Positions 14,980 to 21,581 of a stretch of DNA of 64,000 nt are shown piece by piece (positions within the stretch are counted from its first letter, which is position 1; every line of letters begins with the position of its first letter). The DNA is taken from IMG/VR virus record IMGVR_UViG_3300036851_000411, positions 1 to 64,000 of that record; one strand, written 5' to 3'. The translations under genes were made by a program, and so were the position numbers. This DNA comes from a virus. The notes under the pieces are model-generated. The model saw only the letters and a program-made list of their open reading frames with translations, ran no database searches and was not told where the DNA came from.

Positions 14980-15192
14980 ATGGCACGCGTCAGCGGCATC
15001 ACCTACCTCACCGATCTCGTCGAGAAGCTACGGCGCCGGAAGCGCTGGCCCTCGCTCGGCGAGGTGGCGGAGTCCCGCGCCATCCGCGCGCGCAGCGATC
15101 GACGAAGCCTCAACCTCAAGCCGACGGAGTTGGCGCGGCCGAGGCACAACCATCCGGCGAAGCCGGCGGTGGGGAAGGGCCGCGCCCGTTAG
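14980..15192 (+). CDS. Small basic hypothetical protein
   Basis: GGAG RBS; last gene of the + operon, converging with the island. Confidence 0.5.
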   Translation: MARVSGITYLTDLVEKLRRRKRWPSLGEVAESRAIRARSDRRSLNLKPTELARPRHNHPAKPAVGKGRAR

Positions 15193-15530
15193 GCAGGCAA
15201 AGCGGCGGGAAGCCCCAAGGCGGCAGCCACCACGCGTCGGGCGACGCGTCGGTAGGCTGCCCGCCGGTCGTCCGAGATCCGCGGCCACCACGCGCTGGCG
15301 TCCCGCGCATCCTCCGGTGTCTGAGCGGCGAGGGCGATCGCTCCGCGCTCGACCATGGCATCGAGATCCGCCGGACCGGTGATCATCCGCGCGAACGCCT
15401 CCGCGTCCTCCTCGTTCATCGGCCCCGAGAGCTCGTGCTCACCGTCCTCGGTGACGACGATCAATCGACCCGCGTTCGGGCCGTAGGTCTGCTCGTCGTC
15501 TGCGAGCTGATAGGGCTTGGCGATCGTCAT
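15189..15530 (-). CDS. Hypothetical protein (island, leftward operon)
   Basis: MTIAKPYQ...; coupled to the upstream minus ORF. Confidence 0.6.
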   Translation of the reverse strand: MTIAKPYQLADDEQTYGPNAGRLIVVTEDGEHELSGPMNEEDAEAFARMITGPADLDAMVERGAIALAAQTPEDARDASAWWPRISDDRRAAYRRVARRVVAAALGLPAALPA

Positions 15531-15793
15531 CGGGCGGCCTCCAATTCGGCGCGCTGGAAGTAGTTGGGCTCCGTCTCGCCGTCGAGCCGCACCGCGAGCA
15601 TCCCATCGACCACGTCGACGATCTCGCCCGAGCGGCCGAAGTCGATGTCCGCCGTCACCGTGACGCGCCGACCGACGACGCGCGCGCGGTAGCTCGCCGC
15701 TTGGGCCGCAGCCGCCTCGCGACGGTTCTGCTCGGCGATCGGGTCGCGCCGGTAGGCGTACCCACGGCCCATCGAGTTGAAACTGCCGCCCAT
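15527..15793 (-). CDS. Small SH3/KOW-like protein
   Basis: VGRRVTV....GRSGEIVDV..GMLAVRLDG pattern; GAGGA RBS. Confidence 0.55.
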   Translation of the reverse strand: MGGSFNSMGRGYAYRRDPIAEQNRREAAAAQAASYRARVVGRRVTVTADIDFGRSGEIVDVVDGMLAVRLDGETEPNYFQRAELEAAR

Positions 15794-15804
15794 GGCTCGG
15801 GTCC

Positions 15805-16035
15805 TCAGCGGTTGATGGTGGTGGAAACAGTCGTCGAGCGTGCGGCGCGCTCGGCGGCGCGGAGCTGCTTCCAGCCCGGCACCCACGCGCAGCCGCCGAG
15901 GCTCTGGCACTCGTCGGCGTCGTGGCCCGCCTCTTTGCCGCAGACCACCCATTGCTCGGTCGGGTGGATCTCGCCGCAGAACCCCATCCGGCGCGCCTCG
16001 CGCTGCAACCCTGCTTCCGTCCGAACCCGTGCCAT
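15805..16035 (-). CDS. Small Cys/His protein
   Basis: GGAG RBS; first gene after the leftward promoter. Confidence 0.55.
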   Translation of the reverse strand: MARVRTEAGLQREARRMGFCGEIHPTEQWVVCGKEAGHDADECQSLGGCAWVPGWKQLRAAERAARSTTVSTTINR

Positions 16036-16063
16036 CGTGCCCCGCTCCGTTTGTCGTGTGGGA

Positions 16064-16093
16064 TATGATACCATATGCTACCACATAACACAA
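16064..16093 (-). promoter_or_regulatory. Class II promoter (leftward)
   Basis: TTGTGT-17 nt (containing TGGTAGCATATGG)-TATCAT. Confidence 0.75.
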
Positions 16094-16182
16094 GAGGGAA
16101 GATGTTGCCGATGTTCCCGGACGCGTGCGCGGTGGCCACCCCTTCCAGAACGTACTACTCGCGCCGGTTGTTTGCTTCAATC

Positions 16183-16199
16183 TATGTGATAATTGCCTA
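16183..16199. promoter_or_regulatory. Class I operator (degenerate)
   Basis: TATGTGATAATTGCCTA, 2 mismatches to TATGTGATAATCGCATA. Confidence 0.6.
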
Positions 16200-16229
16200 T
16201 TGCGTAATCTGGTAGCATATGGTATCATA
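16200..16229 (+). promoter_or_regulatory. Class II promoter (rightward)
   Basis: TTGCGT-17 nt (containing TGGTAGCATATGG)-TATCAT. Confidence 0.75.
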
Positions 16230-16286
16230 CTCCTACACAGAGAACGTCAATCGCGACACGGTCAGCACGGACGAGGGGTCGACGCA

Positions 16287-16766
16287 ATGGGCAATCGGGG
16301 CGACGCAGCAAAGCGGCGGAAGCGCTACGGATGGCGGCTGGTGCGGGAGTCGGACGCGGGTGTCGAAGTCTCCTCGGCGGATCGCCTGCCGTGCCGGAGC
16401 CCCCGCGATGCCTACACGATCATGGCGCCGTTCGCGGCGCAGGAGGGGCAGGAGGTGTTCTGGATGCTTTGTCTGGACTCGCAGCATCGCGTGACGCGTG
16501 ACGGCGTCGTGGTGATCACGCGCGGCATTCTCAACTCGTCGCTCGTCCACCCGCGCGAGGTCTTCCGCGAGGCCGTGCTCCGCGAGTCGGCGGCGGTGAT
16601 TCTCTGCCACAACCACCCGTCGGGCGACCCGACGCCGAGCCCCGAGGATCGGCTCATCACCGAGCAGCTCGCCGCTGCCGGTCGCGTCCTCGACATCCCC
16701 GTGTTCGACCACGTCGTGATCGGCGCGGGATGTTACACGAGCTTCGCCGAGCAGGGGTTGCTATGA
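16287..16766 (+). CDS. radC: RadC-like JAB domain protein
   Basis: QEVFW.L.LD, SLVHPREVFREAV, ILCHNHPSGDPTPSPED, DHVVIG. Confidence 0.92.
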   Translation: MGNRGDAAKRRKRYGWRLVRESDAGVEVSSADRLPCRSPRDAYTIMAPFAAQEGQEVFWMLCLDSQHRVTRDGVVVITRGILNSSLVHPREVFREAVLRESAAVILCHNHPSGDPTPSPEDRLITEQLAAAGRVLDIPVFDHVVIGAGCYTSFAEQGLL

Positions 16767-17275
16767 GCCGACTGCGACTCACCGCCAACTCTGCGCTCGC
16801 CCTCGCCGTGGCGTCGGTGCGTGAGGCGGTGAACGACGCCGCCGCGCGGACCCCCGAGCCAGCGCTGGTCATCTCGGGCTACACGCGGGCGCAGGGGATC
16901 GCGGACGGCGTGCTCTTCGACGCCATGGCGCCGGAGCTGGCCGAGGTCACCCGCCAGCACTGGCCGAGCTGGGCCGCGCAGCGGCTCGGCGTCGCGATGA
17001 CGGACGGCGTGCACGCGCTCCTCGGCCGAGCGGTGGCGAACAAGCGATGGCGCCACGACTGGAAAGGGCTGTGGCACGACGTGCTGTGGATCTCTCGCCG
17101 CGCGGTCGGCCGTGCGATTCAGAAGGCGATCGCGAGCGGCCACGGCGAGCGGGTGGAATTCCAAATGGTGATCACGGGCGTCGGGCGCCAGCGCTACCAG
17201 TGGCTGAGCGTCCACGTCGGCCCCGGCGATGATGGGATGCCGGTGCTCACGTTCCTGTTGCCTGACGAGGACTAA
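16763..17275 (+). CDS. DUF6573-like mobile-element protein
   Basis: YTRAQGIADGVL...LWHDVLW...GPGDDGMPVLTFLLPDED. Confidence 0.65.
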   Translation: MSRLRLTANSALALAVASVREAVNDAAARTPEPALVISGYTRAQGIADGVLFDAMAPELAEVTRQHWPSWAAQRLGVAMTDGVHALLGRAVANKRWRHDWKGLWHDVLWISRRAVGRAIQKAIASGHGERVEFQMVITGVGRQRYQWLSVHVGPGDDGMPVLTFLLPDED

Positions 17276-17280
17276 CGACG

Positions 17281-17574
17281 ATGCTGGACATCACATGGGT
17301 GATTGCTGACGTGCGAGCACAAATCGCTCTCGCGAAGCGGTCGCCGAATGCGAGCGGTGCCGTCACGATCGGCGCCGAAGCCGCTGAGACGCTGCTTGCG
17401 CACCTGACCCACCATGCGGCCGAGCCAACGGTCGAGGAGATCGCGAGCGCTCGACACCAGGCGCAGGGCGGCGATCAGGACGCGTGGCGATCGCTCTGCC
17501 ACCGGTATCCCGAGTGGAACGAGAACGGCGGCTCGGCCGACGCATGGGCAGACGACTCAGAGCTTTACCTCTAA
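17281..17574 (+). CDS. Hypothetical protein
   Basis: GAGGA RBS; in operon. Confidence 0.5.
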   Translation: MLDITWVIADVRAQIALAKRSPNASGAVTIGAEAAETLLAHLTHHAAEPTVEEIASARHQAQGGDQDAWRSLCHRYPEWNENGGSADAWADDSELYL

Positions 17575-17585
17575 CCTAACGAGTG

Positions 17586-17801
17586 ATGCGAACCCGATGC
17601 CTGAACGGCGTGCGGACTCCCGCCGGCATGGTGCGATGTGGATGGAGTGGCCACGGCTACGAGCTCACGACCGAGCGCGGCGCGAAGAGCTGCCCGCGAT
17701 GCAAGTCGAGCACGACGCTGGTCGTGGTCCGCGAGGTGGCGGCGGTGGTGTACAGCGCGCCCCGCCGGGCGGTCGCGGCGCGGCTCGCGCGGAGGGCTTG
17801 A
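17586..17801 (+). CDS. Small zinc-ribbon protein
   Basis: RCLN...RCGW...SCPRCKS. Confidence 0.5.
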   Translation: MRTRCLNGVRTPAGMVRCGWSGHGYELTTERGAKSCPRCKSSTTLVVVREVAAVVYSAPRRAVAARLARRA

Positions 17802-17804
17802 GCG

Positions 17805-18131
17805 ATGAGCATCGAAGCGCTCCGCCAGGCATTCAAGGATGGATGCCGGCACAACGCGTGTGCGATGTACGACGAGGCCGAAGTTGAGAGCGAGGCCTCC
17901 GAGCGGTTTCCCACGCCCGCGATCGCACCGGAGGACCGGTCCACCCAGGTCTATCCGAGGCTGACGCCGCGCGGGTCTCGGCTACTCGCGGCGTTCGACA
18001 ACGCCGCGTTCGCGTGCGGCGAGTGGTCGCAGGATGATGACGAGCCGTTCGTGGCCGTCTACCGACGCTCTCGGCGAGCCCAAAAGGCGCTGCTCGACTA
18101 CTTCGTCGAGTTGGAGGCGCGGACGCCGTGA
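17805..18131 (+). CDS. Hypothetical protein
   Basis: GGAGG RBS; coupled to the next gene. Confidence 0.55.
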   Translation: MSIEALRQAFKDGCRHNACAMYDEAEVESEASERFPTPAIAPEDRSTQVYPRLTPRGSRLLAAFDNAAFACGEWSQDDDEPFVAVYRRSRRAQKALLDYFVELEARTP

Positions 18132-18925
18132 ACAAGCGATGGCGCGATCGCTCGCAGCGCTGGCGCGCGCCGGGCGACGTGTTCGACCCGCGTCGCTTCG
18201 CGGTCGATGGGATCGCCGACGACACCCGGCCGAAGGAATTCGTCGAGCAGCATCACTACGCGGCGAGTTATCCGGCGGCCGTCTTTCGCGTCGGGCTGTT
18301 CGGTCCGCGGGCCGCGCTCGTCGGCGTCGCGGTATTCAGCGTCCCGCCACAGCAGGCCGCGCTCCCGAAGTGGACCGGCGTCACGTTAGGCGAGGGCGCG
18401 GCGGAGCTCGGCCGCTTCGTGCTCCTCGACGACGTGGGCTACAACGCCGAGACGTGGTTCCTCTCGCGCGCGTTTCGCCTCCTCCGAACGCACAAGCACT
18501 ATCGACGCATCCTCTCCTACGCGGATCCGCTCGAGCGCCCGGAGATCGCGAAGCCCGCGCACTGGGGAACGGTCTATCAGGCGGCGAACGCAACGTTTGC
18601 GGGTCGATCGGAAGCCCGGTGGCAACACATTGCGCCGACAGGCGAGGTCGTCAGCCGGCGGATGCTCAACAAGATCCGCCAGGGCCATCAGGGATGGCAG
18701 TATGGAGTCGACTGGCTGAGAGAGCGCGGCGCGCCAGTGCAGGGAACTGCCGAGCCGTCCCGTGGATGGGTCGATCGGGTGCTCTCAGCGTGGCGACGTG
18801 TGTACCACCCCGGCAACCTCGCCTATGTGTTCGGGCTCGACGATCGCGCGAAGTCGGCGCTCCGGACGCTCCACGCTGGTGGGTTACCCTACGTGCGCCC
18901 TGCGGCGGCTTGTGTGCAATGGTAG
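18128..18925 (+). CDS. Mom-family (GNAT-fold) adenine modification protein
   Basis: FVEQHHYAASYP...GLF...LVGVAVFSVP...ELGRFVLLD...NAETWFLSRAF...SYADP...H.GTVYQA.NA.F.G. Confidence 0.75.
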   Translation: MNKRWRDRSQRWRAPGDVFDPRRFAVDGIADDTRPKEFVEQHHYAASYPAAVFRVGLFGPRAALVGVAVFSVPPQQAALPKWTGVTLGEGAAELGRFVLLDDVGYNAETWFLSRAFRLLRTHKHYRRILSYADPLERPEIAKPAHWGTVYQAANATFAGRSEARWQHIAPTGEVVSRRMLNKIRQGHQGWQYGVDWLRERGAPVQGTAEPSRGWVDRVLSAWRRVYHPGNLAYVFGLDDRAKSALRTLHAGGLPYVRPAAACVQW

Positions 18926-18938
18926 CATATGGTATTAT
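18910..18938 (+). promoter_or_regulatory. Class II promoter (third copy)
   Basis: TTGTGT-17 nt (containing TGGTAGCATATGG)-TATTAT. Confidence 0.75.
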
Positions 18939-18969
18939 TCGTGTGTCGTCAGCCAGTGAGTGTTATCAT

Positions 18970-19176
18970 ATGCGCCAGTCATCGACTGTGCCCCTCAGCG
19001 CCGAACAAGTGAACGCGATCCTCGCGCGCGCTGCCGGCGATATCGATGTTTGCGAGAACCCGCCGGGGCGGAATACGTCCGCGGTGCTCGCGGTGTTTGG
19101 CTTTGCTGCGCATCGGAGCGTCGACCAGGCAGCCGACGCCGAGGCGATGCTCGACGCGCTGGAGAGCGACAGGTGA
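18970..19176 (+). CDS. Hypothetical protein
   Basis: First ORF after the third class II promoter. Confidence 0.5.
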   Translation: MRQSSTVPLSAEQVNAILARAAGDIDVCENPPGRNTSAVLAVFGFAAHRSVDQAADAEAMLDALESDR

Positions 19177-19396
19177 GAATCGAGCCGATGGAGTGCGCTG
19201 GCGGGTCCGCCGTCGTCGTGCATGCCGCCGACGGCGAGCCAGCGCTCCTCATCGCCGAGCGCGATGGATTGCTCATGTGGATGGAGGTGCGGCGCGGCTA
19301 TCGTCGGAGCGCCCACAGTCGACGCGCGGGGCTCGCGAGCGCGGCGGCGAAACGGAACCGCGCCAACCCCGACGCTGTGGCGACCTTGCCAACCCC

Positions 19397-19870
19397 ATGA
19401 CACCGCGTAGAATGCCCGCGGTGCCCCGCAAGCCACTCGGCCCCAAGCCCAAGTTCCCGAAGCAGAACCTCGGTGCGCGCGACGCGCAGATCAGCGTGCG
19501 ACGTGCGAACCTTCACGAGCCACTGCTCGCCCGCGAGCGCACGGGGCTCAAGCCGGTCGACATCATCCGGCGCGACCTCCTCCGCTTCTGGACGGCGGCC
19601 GACGACAGCGCCTCCCGGCTCGCCCTCTCACGCGAGGATCTCGAGAAGATCGGCAAGGCGATTGCGGGGGTGGCGTTCGACGATCCGAAGCACGCGCGCA
19701 TGCTGCCGGCGTTCGTGGCGGCGGAGCTCGGCGACGATGACCCAATCGTCGATCGACTCAAGGGCGCGGGAAGCGGGGCATGGCCGCTCGCGGTCCTGTA
19801 CGGCGTGATCGATGCAGCCGATCGCGCGTGGAACAATGGCATGGCGAGAGATGAGAAGGGCGATGCCTGA
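19397..19870 (+). CDS. Putative ribbon-helix-helix-like regulator
   Basis: Basic N-terminus, then QISVR strand followed by two predicted helices (LHEPLLAR..., PVDIIRRDLLRF). Confidence 0.4.
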   Translation: MTPRRMPAVPRKPLGPKPKFPKQNLGARDAQISVRRANLHEPLLARERTGLKPVDIIRRDLLRFWTAADDSASRLALSREDLEKIGKAIAGVAFDDPKHARMLPAFVAAELGDDDPIVDRLKGAGSGAWPLAVLYGVIDAADRAWNNGMARDEKGDA

Positions 19871-20195
19871 CGATCGCGATGAAGAGCGCCGTCACCTCCG
19901 GCTCGAAAAGTCTGACGCCCGCGACGAGACCGAGCCGCGTCCAATTCGCGAACGGCCGCCGATCGTGACCATTGATCCGGCGACACTGCGCGGGTACTCG
20001 GAGATGCGTGCGATCGGGCTCAGGGTCACGCAGGCCGCGGAGCCCGGCGGTGGTCACGGTTGGGTCGGATGGGTCGCAACGTGCGATGCATTTCCGGGTC
20101 TGGAAGGTCTCGGTGATATGCCGGACTACGCAATCGGCTCGCTCCTCTCCAAAGTGATCGATCGGTACCACGCGCTGGAGAATGAGCGTGGCTGA
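19863..20195 (+). CDS. Hypothetical protein (weak HicB-like fold)
   Basis: GWVATCDAFPGLEGLGD resembles a HicB N-terminal domain. Confidence 0.4.
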   Translation: MPDDRDEERRHLRLEKSDARDETEPRPIRERPPIVTIDPATLRGYSEMRAIGLRVTQAAEPGGGHGWVGWVATCDAFPGLEGLGDMPDYAIGSLLSKVIDRYHALENERG

Positions 20196-20541
20196 GACCG
20201 TGGTGCCCAACGACCAACCGAGCCGCGATCTCGACTTCGCCGTCGCTCGCGCGATGGGCATCGAGCTGCAGCAGCTGCCGGGCGAAAGCGAGCCGAGTGT
20301 CGTCGAGCGAACGGTCGCGGGTGCGGTGCGTTCGCTGGCGCGTGTTCGCGGCTACTCCGGAGACGAGCGCTATCTCGGGGATCTCCTGCGGTTCCTGGTG
20401 AACAAGGGATGGACGTTCTCGTTCGGTCGCGAGCTCGACGGATGGCACGCGGCCATCCCGCTCGTTCAGGTCCGGATGCGCGGCGATTCGCTATCGGTGC
20501 TGCTCTGCGCCGTGATCGTCGCCGTGACCGAAGCGCGATGA
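20182..20541 (+). CDS. Hypothetical phage protein
   Basis: SRDLDFAVARAMG...YS pattern common in phage early proteins. Confidence 0.55.
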   Translation: MSVAETVVPNDQPSRDLDFAVARAMGIELQQLPGESEPSVVERTVAGAVRSLARVRGYSGDERYLGDLLRFLVNKGWTFSFGRELDGWHAAIPLVQVRMRGDSLSVLLCAVIVAVTEAR

Positions 20542-20786
20542 CGATGGCCCCGCGGCTCTCGCCCGAGATGCACGCTCGGATCATCGCCGAATTGCGACGG
20601 CGGCTCCAGAGCGCGATCGAGCGAGCGGCGCGCGAGGGGTGCGACACGCCGGTGATCCACATGAGCGCCGAGCGGCGATGTGGCGCGGTGGGCGTCGACG
20701 AGGAAGGGCATTGCCTGCGGTGCGGCCTCGTGCCTCCCGAAGAGGACACCGAGACCGAGTGCCCACCGGGCTTCTTCGACAGTTAG
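20538..20786 (+). CDS. Small Cys-rich protein
   Basis: ATGA coupling; HCLRCG...ECPPGF. Confidence 0.5.
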   Translation: MTMAPRLSPEMHARIIAELRRRLQSAIERAAREGCDTPVIHMSAERRCGAVGVDEEGHCLRCGLVPPEEDTETECPPGFFDS

Positions 20787-20918
20787 AAGGCTGTGCGGCA
20801 ACGCTCAGACGGCTGTGCGGCGACGGAACGGCAGCGCCACGAGTCAGAGCCGGCATGTACGGGCAATGCCAAGCCGTACAAGGCGTTACGCGAGGTGTGG
20901 TGTCACACGCTCGTACAC

Positions 20919-20986
20919 TGTTGCAACACGTGTTGCACACAATGTTGCACAAAGTGATGTGAAACATATTTCACATGCATGCAACA
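20919..20986. repeat. TGTTGCA repeats and palindromes
   Basis: TGTTGCA at 20919, 20931 and 20943 (12-bp period), inverted copy at 20980; palindromes TGCAACACGTGTTGCA and ATGTGAAA-N4-TTTCACAT. Confidence 0.8.
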
Positions 20987-20997
20987 CCGTGTATAAT
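20969..20997 (+). promoter_or_regulatory. sigma70-like promoter antisense to the phage tRNA
   Basis: TTTCAC-17-TATAAT. Confidence 0.5.
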
Positions 20998-21552: not shown

Positions 21553-21581
21553 TTGCGGATTATGCTTTAATCACATAATCT
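21553..21581 (+). promoter_or_regulatory. Class I promoter/operator upstream of the packaging operon
   Basis: TTGCGG-17-TAATCT enclosing TATGCTTTAATCACATA. Confidence 0.65.

Follow-up and report, generated by a model that had tools for sequence, protein, structure and literature searches.

An island of 15 accessory open reading frames (ORFs) at 15189–20786 of a phage genome from a soil metagenome (IMG/VR virus record IMGVR_UViG_3300036851_000411; 82,133 bp, ~90% complete, 67% guanine plus cytosine (GC); the window analysed comprises bases 1–64000 of this record) carries three near-identical promoter sites, P1, P2 and P3, to which one block of 16 nucleotides (nt) is common; three ORFs lie leftward after P1, six after P2 and six after P3 (Table 1). 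On balance, ORF 19397, a predicted ribbon-helix-helix (RHH) protein encoded behind P3 and resembling AcrIE10, is taken to be the self-silencing repressor of a counter-defence regulon that is read from the three promoters; the island is probably an accessory, counter-defence module of a high-GC soil phage.

Results and Discussion

Promoters and operator block

The 16-mer TGGTAGCATATGGTAT was found at exactly three sites, 16068–16083 (−), 16210–16225 (+) and 18920–18935 (+); none was added at 3 mismatches, no fourth copy was present anywhere in the 82,133-bp record, and the chance expectation, obtained from shuffles, was 0.06 matches. The pattern TTGYGT-N4-TGGTAGCATATGG-TATYAT (29 nt) gave three matches, starting at 16093 (−), 16200 (+) and 18910 (+), vs 0.00 expected. 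At these three positions promoters had been proposed from the sequence alone, and the repeat is confirmed, far beyond chance; the perfect 20-nt inverted repeat that the same sequence-only reading had ascribed to P1 and P2 was found as well (16064–16083 and 16210–16229), inside 37-nt arms of 86% complementarity.

The whole genome was scanned on both strands for TTGNNN-N16–18-TANNNT with at least 4/6 matches in the −10 hexamer; 17 sites were obtained, and P1–P3 are the only ones of these to combine a TG extended −10 with a 5/6 −10 hexamer. A stricter consensus scan passes over all three, because TTGYGT agrees with TTGACA at only 3/6 positions. The sigma-70 geometry (17-bp spacer and extended −10) is ideal at each site, and the three sites are very probably promoters. 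Recombination or inversion sites, or relics of duplication, would offer another origin for the repeats (the inverted pair lies 126 bp apart and the direct copy 2.7 kb away), and a perfect 20-bp inverted repeat is what such sites might show; every copy, however, has TTGYGT 17 bp from TATYAT and is aimed at a string of ORFs 20–60 bp downstream, the flanks are unrelated, and no recombinase was recognised in the 15 island ORFs, which makes this origin very improbable. An invertible segment was set aside for the same reasons (no recombinase recognised; full promoter geometry at each copy).

Across the three copies the −35 hexamer varies by one base, the next four bases are unrelated and the following 16 are invariant; variable positions beside invariant ones argue for selection by a binding factor and against recent duplication alone. 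The block is made up of two 8-mers, both nearly palindromic, that are separated by 2 bp and centred 10 bp apart; each differs by one base from the perfect palindrome TGGTACCA. Both the extended −10 TG and five of the six −10 bases fall within the downstream 8-mer, so that a protein bound there would exclude RNA polymerase. Conserved beyond the needs of RNA polymerase, the block looks, by its sequence, like a two-half-site operator (O1–O3, Table 1), placed over the extended −10 and −10 both in the operon of ORF 19397 itself (P3) and in the neighbouring operons (P1, P2). Elsewhere in the genome the half-sites occur at background frequency, not enriched.

The same block could instead serve RNA polymerase, a phage activator or a sigma-like factor, P1–P3 then being strong constitutive or activator-dependent promoters of one temporal class; TGG-TATCAT is a textbook extended −10, and another promoter class with a conserved spacer is used by the phage for late genes. 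Against this stand ten further invariant spacer bases for which no base-specific sigma-70 requirement is known, a two-fold, 10-bp-periodic structure that is typical of dimeric repressor sites over the −10, and −35 hexamers that are already adequate, so that no activator seems needed. A temporal class is regarded as quite improbable, and the block is treated below as a candidate repressor site.

P3 overlaps the last codons of the gene for the Mom-like DNA modification protein, the TAG in TGGTAG (18923–18925) being the stop codon of that gene. Since its −35 hexamer and first operator half-site fall within the coding sequence, P3 would constrain the C-terminus of the Mom-like protein (...AACVQW). 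No terminator-like site was found between the P2 and P3 units, and P3 is for this reason probably an internal booster promoter.

A class I operator had been placed between P1 and P2 in the sequence-only reading, and a 17-bp class I palindrome was located there, at 16183–16199. Other copies of it were found genome-wide, near 21561, 28149, 32730, 42543, 53582 and 60471; with the palindrome beside P2, a second, phage-global regulator probably acts on that promoter. A tandem 9-mer, GATGTTGCC GATGTTCCC, is present at 16101–16118, also between P1 and P2; its sole other match in 82 kb is at 77448, and one more binding site of this divergent control region may lie here.

Exact matches to the motif in other genomes were rejected as chance: 13 in IMG/VR, all in low-GC contigs without promoter context, and, among 5 in metagenomes, the 2 that lie in contigs of 68% GC (L022:12222-12242 and L019:2093-2113). 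In these two contigs the 21-nt identity to the P3 core falls inside coding sequence (...DYGSIWYYF stop); tblastx of motif-matching metagenome contigs vs phage gave noise only. The two chance matches of 21 nt are a caution against motif-only searches.

The AcrIE10-like protein

ORF 19397 consists of a basic, Pro-rich N-terminal arm, a predicted RHH at ~30–74 and a C-terminal helical domain at 79–156. Search among 1.84 billion cluster representatives gave three homologues at 60–65% identity and ~20 distant ones; all 10 family members of which the source was looked up are metagenomic. The closest homologues (P0002–P0004) lie on Logan or short JGI contigs, that of P0003 having 13.7 kb. Conserved in the family alignment are hydrophobic-x-hydrophobic-Arg, a short helix and (I/V)xRRDLxRYY, followed by the helical domain. 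P0023 carries an extra N-terminal XRE helix-turn-helix domain, and P0003 was called as an HNH nuclease fusion, be it genuine or an artefact of gene calling. Across the ATG of ORF 19397, at 19386–19413, lies a second sigma-70-like site, TTGCCA-16-TAGAAT; in the database the protein starts at the next ATG, 19412.

For ORF 19397, ESM Atlas gave only a weak RHH_1 lead (score 0.88). A first AF2 model, made from 4 sequences, had a predicted local distance difference test score (pLDDT) of 63.6 and gave no fold match. The AlphaFold model from 24 sequences (mean pLDDT 86.9) has an extended segment at 30–35 and helices at 36–46 and 53–74, followed by the helical domain; the candidate RHH regulator that had been read from the sequence downstream of P3 thus reappears as an RHH in the model. 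Exhaustive comparison with VIA-align placed AcrIE10 in complex with Cas7 (8ji9, chain D) at the top (Z 9.1, root-mean-square deviation (rmsd) 2.8 Å, 106/114 residues aligned; next chain 4.9); in a second run apo and DNA-bound AcrIE10 (9m71_A and 9m7t_A) gave Z 9.0 and 8.9 (next 4.6). For the three AcrIE10 chains (PDB 8JI9, 9M71 and 9M7T) the rmsd is 2.8–3.2 Å with 106–107 of 113–115 residues aligned; model residues 26/27–143 pair with AcrIE10 residues 2/3–116, the RHH included. The C-terminal domain matches the five-helix 'Acr' domain of AcrIE10 both in the fold comparison and in the hhalign comparison that follows.

The sequence evidence for kinship with AcrIE10 is independent of the fold match, and weaker. 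In a search of the family profile vs all ORFs in two parts of plasmid pKPHS2 (together ~86 of 111 kb), the AcrIE10 gene was the best match (E 0.0076); hhalign of two family alignments (A3 vs A4) gave 78% probability, E 1.8e-5, over 72 columns, which run from the end of RHH helix 2 (RYY on DRY) through the C-terminal domain, as a structural alignment would place them. Judged from the model, ORF 19397 is a remote structural relative of AcrIE10, and the two are probably homologous; that it is an RHH protein of the AcrIE10 fold is, on this model, rather likely.

Cas7 of the Klebsiella type I-E* system is bound by AcrIE10 (PMC11317147), which acts as an Aca as well: through its N-terminal RHH it attaches, as a dimer of dimers, to a 20-bp inverted repeat over the −10/−35 of the promoter of acrIE9.2-acrIE10, an operon of Klebsiella conjugative plasmids, and the half-sites must be 2 bp apart; it represses its own operon ~80-fold, repression being relieved by Cas7 binding (PMC13530269). 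The AcrIE10 operator on pKPHS2 is TGTATGACA-TC-TGTCATACA and ends within the likely −10. A 121-kb IMG/VR phage (L024) encodes a distant family member of ORF 19397 next to, and downstream of, a DndB gene. In front of it stands TGTATGCA-AC-TGCATACA, which ends within the −10; the site is a perfect inverted repeat whose 18-bp arms, 2 bp apart, cover a TTGTTT −35 and a TACAAT −10 (L024:4860-4900), and it is unique in that genome. As read from sequence, three very divergent members thus appear to keep one geometry: two half-sites, a 2-bp spacer, and a downstream half-site reaching into the −10.

ORF 19397 has the domain order of AcrIE10 (N-terminal RHH, then a small helical domain) with a nearly full-length fold match (Z ~9); both genes lie downstream of small ORFs in one operon, and the operator proposed here, like that of AcrIE10, consists of two half-sites 2 bp apart and reaches the −10 of the operon promoter. 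Unlike AcrIE10, which is >97% plasmid-borne and found in Enterobacteriaceae, ORF 19397 is borne by a phage in a soil genome of 67% GC; it is ~10–13% identical and 40 amino acids (aa) longer, with a 28-residue basic N-terminal arm. Near-palindromes of 8 bp form the half-sites here, while a single inverted repeat with 9-bp arms provides those of AcrIE10; the target promoters number three here vs one, and the cargo is RadC, DUF6573 and Mom-like, whereas the AcrIE10 operon carries AcrIE9.2.

Proposed mode of action

For promoter activity, DNA binding, repression, timing and the anti-defence role of the cargo we infer the following course. The DNA would enter the cell without repressor, and host RNA polymerase would fire P1, P2 and P3. 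Transcription from P3, joined by read-through from P2, would let the AcrIE10-like protein build up; as a dimer of dimers (tetramer), its N-terminal RHH domains would occupy both 8-bp half-sites, TGGTAGCA and TGGTATCA, and the bound repressor would cover the extended −10 and −10 and silence all three promoters, its own synthesis included. By pure inference, the C-terminal domain may also have a binding partner among the host defence proteins, as AcrIE10 has in Cas7. Burst-then-repress logic of this kind is established for acr-aca operons. In the sequence-only reading an anti-defence regulon silencing itself through an RHH repressor had been proposed; the promoter geometry, the operator-like block and the predicted AcrIE10-like RHH speak for this part of it, and its plasmid analogue with ArdK fell (see below).

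Several points weigh against this assignment. ORF 19397 has no match to a Pfam RHH family, nor any in PHROG, and as the third gene it lies ~460 bp from P3. Foldseek on the model of pLDDT 86.9 gave nothing at E up to 0.001, AcrIE10 not being among the top rows listed, and middling Z scores can arise by chance for helical models. The family profile matches AcrIE10 only weakly vs the PDB sequences (E 0.7); sequence similarity is weak (10–13% identity), and hhalign reached only the 78% given above. The dyad is imperfect, the second half-site of P3 differing at one base; a genome-wide palindrome unlike the operator abuts P2, so that another regulator probably acts there too. In the cargo, the Mom-like enzyme is the sole known anti-defence protein that was recognised.

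Some of these points would also suit a different reader of the block. The promoters may be real and co-regulated, with the block read by another island product (e.g., the Cys-rich ORF A), by a phage regulator encoded elsewhere or by a host factor; ORF 19397 would then only inhibit a host protein, or would regulate something else. It adjoins none of the promoters, the class I palindrome beside P2 points to other regulators at work, and the screening for DNA-binding domains covered a minority of the phage proteins. On the other hand, a DNA-binding fold is predicted for ORF 19397 and for no other island product, and the protein that it matches is proven to control its own operon through a site of the same geometry; no helix-turn-helix or RHH was found in the other 14 island ORFs (Pfam, E up to 0.01; E up to 10 for nine that were rescanned). 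Another reader is considered unlikely, and repression by ORF 19397 is preferred.

By analogy with AcrIE10, the protein might further be a sensor-regulator: a defence protein held by the C-terminal domain would break the DNA-bound dimer of dimers, and expression of the counter-restriction set (RadC, DUF6573, Mom-type DNA hypermodification and a dozen orphan ORFs) would scale with the defence load of the cell entered. This extension is rather unlikely; if true, the Cas7-titration circuit of one plasmid operon would have a phage counterpart with three promoters and with DNA modification among its outputs.

Cargo genes and genome context

Coordinates of promoters, operators and genes are collected in Table 1. 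No match to a family (Pfam, PHROG) was obtained for 12/15 island ORFs, and no DNA-binding family was found in the small ORFs (Pfam, E up to 10). The known families are of two types: the Mom-like protein is of counter-restriction type, RadC and DUF6573 are of plasmid type.

Table 1: Promoters, proposed operators and genes of the island (positions in the window).
Feature	Position	Strand	Description
P1	16065..16093	-	TTGTGT, 17-bp spacer, TATCAT, TG extended −10; reads into 3 leftward ORFs
P2	16200..16228	+	TTGCGT, 17-bp spacer, TATCAT, TG extended −10; reads into RadC-to-Mom-like operon
P3	18910..18938	+	TTGTGT, 17-bp spacer, TATTAT, TG extended −10; reads into six small ORFs
O1 (proposed operator)	16066..16083	-	TGGTAGCA-TA-TGGTATCA; 14/18 positions dyad-symmetric
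O2 (proposed operator)	16210..16227	+	same as O1; spans extended −10 and 5/6 −10 bases of P2
O3 (proposed operator)	18920..18937	+	TGGTAGCA-TA-TGGTATTA; 12/18 positions dyad-symmetric
Class I 17-bp palindrome	16183..16199	.	TATGTGATAATTGCCTA; abuts −35 of P2; centre ~−44 from inferred P2 start
ORF C	15189..15530	-	113 aa, acidic; no family match
ORF B	15527..15793	-	88 aa; sub-threshold KOW match only, E 0.0047
ORF A	15805..16035	-	76 aa, Cys/His-rich, first after P1; no family match
RadC-like JAB protein	16287..16766	+	159 aa; Pfam PF04002, 5e-41
DUF6573 protein	16763..17275	+	170 aa; Pfam, 1e-9
Acidic ORF	17281..17574	+	97 aa; no match
Zinc-ribbon-like ORF	17583..17801	+	72 aa, basic, four Cys incl. 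CPRCK
Acidic ORF	17805..18131	+	108 aa; no match
Mom-like DNA modification protein	18128..18925	+	265 aa; sixth gene after P2
ORF	18970..19176	+	68 aa, isoelectric point 4.4, first after P3; no Pfam/PHROG match
ORF	19173..19400	+	75 aa, basic; no Pfam/PHROG match
AcrIE10-like protein (ORF 19397)	19397..19870	+	157 aa, third gene after P3; proposed P1/P2/P3 repressor
ORF	19863..20195	+	110 aa; no match
ORF	20182..20541	+	119 aa; no match
ORF	20538..20786	+	82 aa, Cys-rich C-terminus, last of island; no match

The identities of the RadC and Mom-like proteins, given in the sequence-only reading, held in the family searches (RadC: Pfam, 5e-41; Mom-like: PF25680, 1.4e-22, 80.8 bits vs a curated cut-off of 27.1, and PHROG 1384, 1.9e-28). 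In the RadC-like protein the H-x-H...S-x-x-D metal site is intact (motif HNHPSGDPTPSPED). Relatives of the DUF6573 protein were found on 53 plasmid records, of which 30 are conjugative; in one of these conjugative plasmids the gene lies within a string of small hypothetical genes. Search with the Mom-like protein led to one 81-kb low-GC phage (L017), with which the promoter motif is not in common. Two genes before the Mom-like gene, the 72-aa ORF encodes a CPRCK reminiscent of the second zinc knuckle in Mu Com; no match of this ORF to the Com family was found (Pfam, E up to 10).

Of the ORFs read from P3, the 68-aa one occupies the position of the acr gene in acr-aca operons; no usable ESM Atlas match was obtained for it. 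The 75-aa ORF that follows found only itself among 5.8 billion proteins. A regulator with homologues behind two small ORFs without them would correspond, by analogy, to the usual acr/aca pattern.

The gene layout of the 82-kb record is phage-like: almost all genes are on the plus strand (codon-position GC analysis), and the ORFs of 15189–16035 are the only convincing minus-strand genes within the first 58 kb. Long ORFs on one strand encode 537 aa (26.5 kb), 484 aa (28.2 kb) and 1408 aa (42.8 kb) and are taken as terminase, portal and tape measure, judged from size and position alone. The island had no match by blastn vs 50,697 phage records; searches of IMG/VR and GTDB genomes with TerL, ORF 19397 and the close-family alignment (A1) turned up no relatives. 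Just past the last island gene, at 20913–20997, a cluster holds 5/10 of the TGTTGCA heptamers of the genome (3 direct copies 12 bp apart, 2 inverted), and a near-consensus promoter, TTCACA-16-TATAAT, lies in it at 20970–20997. Outside the window (G000:C1:78680-78800), back-to-back promoters at 78707 (−) and 78774 (+), both with a perfect TTGACA −35 and a 17-bp spacer, are possibly the lysis-lysogeny switch of the phage.

Relation to known systems

The closest known systems are AcrIE10 and Aca14, published 2024–2026, and the kind of system is thus already known. Aca14 of Pasteurella multocida is an RHH Aca that represses its own operon and a neighbouring anti-defence operon via repeats over the −10 (PMC13551039). 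The island resembles that cluster by layout, not by sequence comparison, in having one regulator motif over the −10 of several promoters; Aca14 is a small stand-alone RHH protein without the AcrIE10-type C-terminal domain, unlike ORF 19397, and, unlike in the Aca14 cluster, no known acr gene was recognised in the island.

The ArdK/CUP regulon was the analogue drawn in the sequence-only reading, with ArdK as an RHH repressor. ArdK (IncN pKM101, IncW R388) is a KorA-family helix-turn-helix dimer on direct TTGACA repeats at the −35 and represses five R388 promoters (PMC9723621), which removes it as an RHH precedent; the present element is a phage, not a plasmid leading region. One small repressor, several near-identical promoters and negative feedback are features of the ArdK/CUP regulon that are proposed here too; that system, however, belongs to a plasmid leading region with early establishment and anti-restriction genes. 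No helix-turn-helix family was found in any island ORF (Pfam scans), the candidate here being RHH-like, unlike ArdK; between ORF 19397 and ArdK there is no sequence or fold relation.

In phage Mu, com-mom is controlled by the C activator, by Dam/OxyR and by Com, a zinc-finger translational activator. As in Mu, the Mom-family modifier stands at the end of an operon under transcriptional control. Here no Com match was obtained, and the Mom-like gene comes sixth in a sigma-70 operon that a putative repressor would govern.

Conclusion

What differs here is, first, a remote, high-GC, phage-borne branch of the AcrIE10-like family; second, a single operator common to three promoters in a divergent layout; third, a cargo of RadC, DUF6573, a Mom-type modifier and ~12 ORFs without a family match (two were searched and are orphans), not recognised anti-CRISPRs. 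To our knowledge, the previously characterised AcrIE10-type members are from enterobacterial plasmids only, and a remote branch of the AcrIE10 fold in high-GC soil phages would, if true, widen the family. Aca-type repressors, being conserved, are the best available handle on new anti-defence genes; if the assignment is true, about a dozen orphan ORFs would be marked as candidates for counter-defence screens, and a Mom-type DNA hypermodification enzyme would come under the burst-then-repress logic known for anti-CRISPRs.

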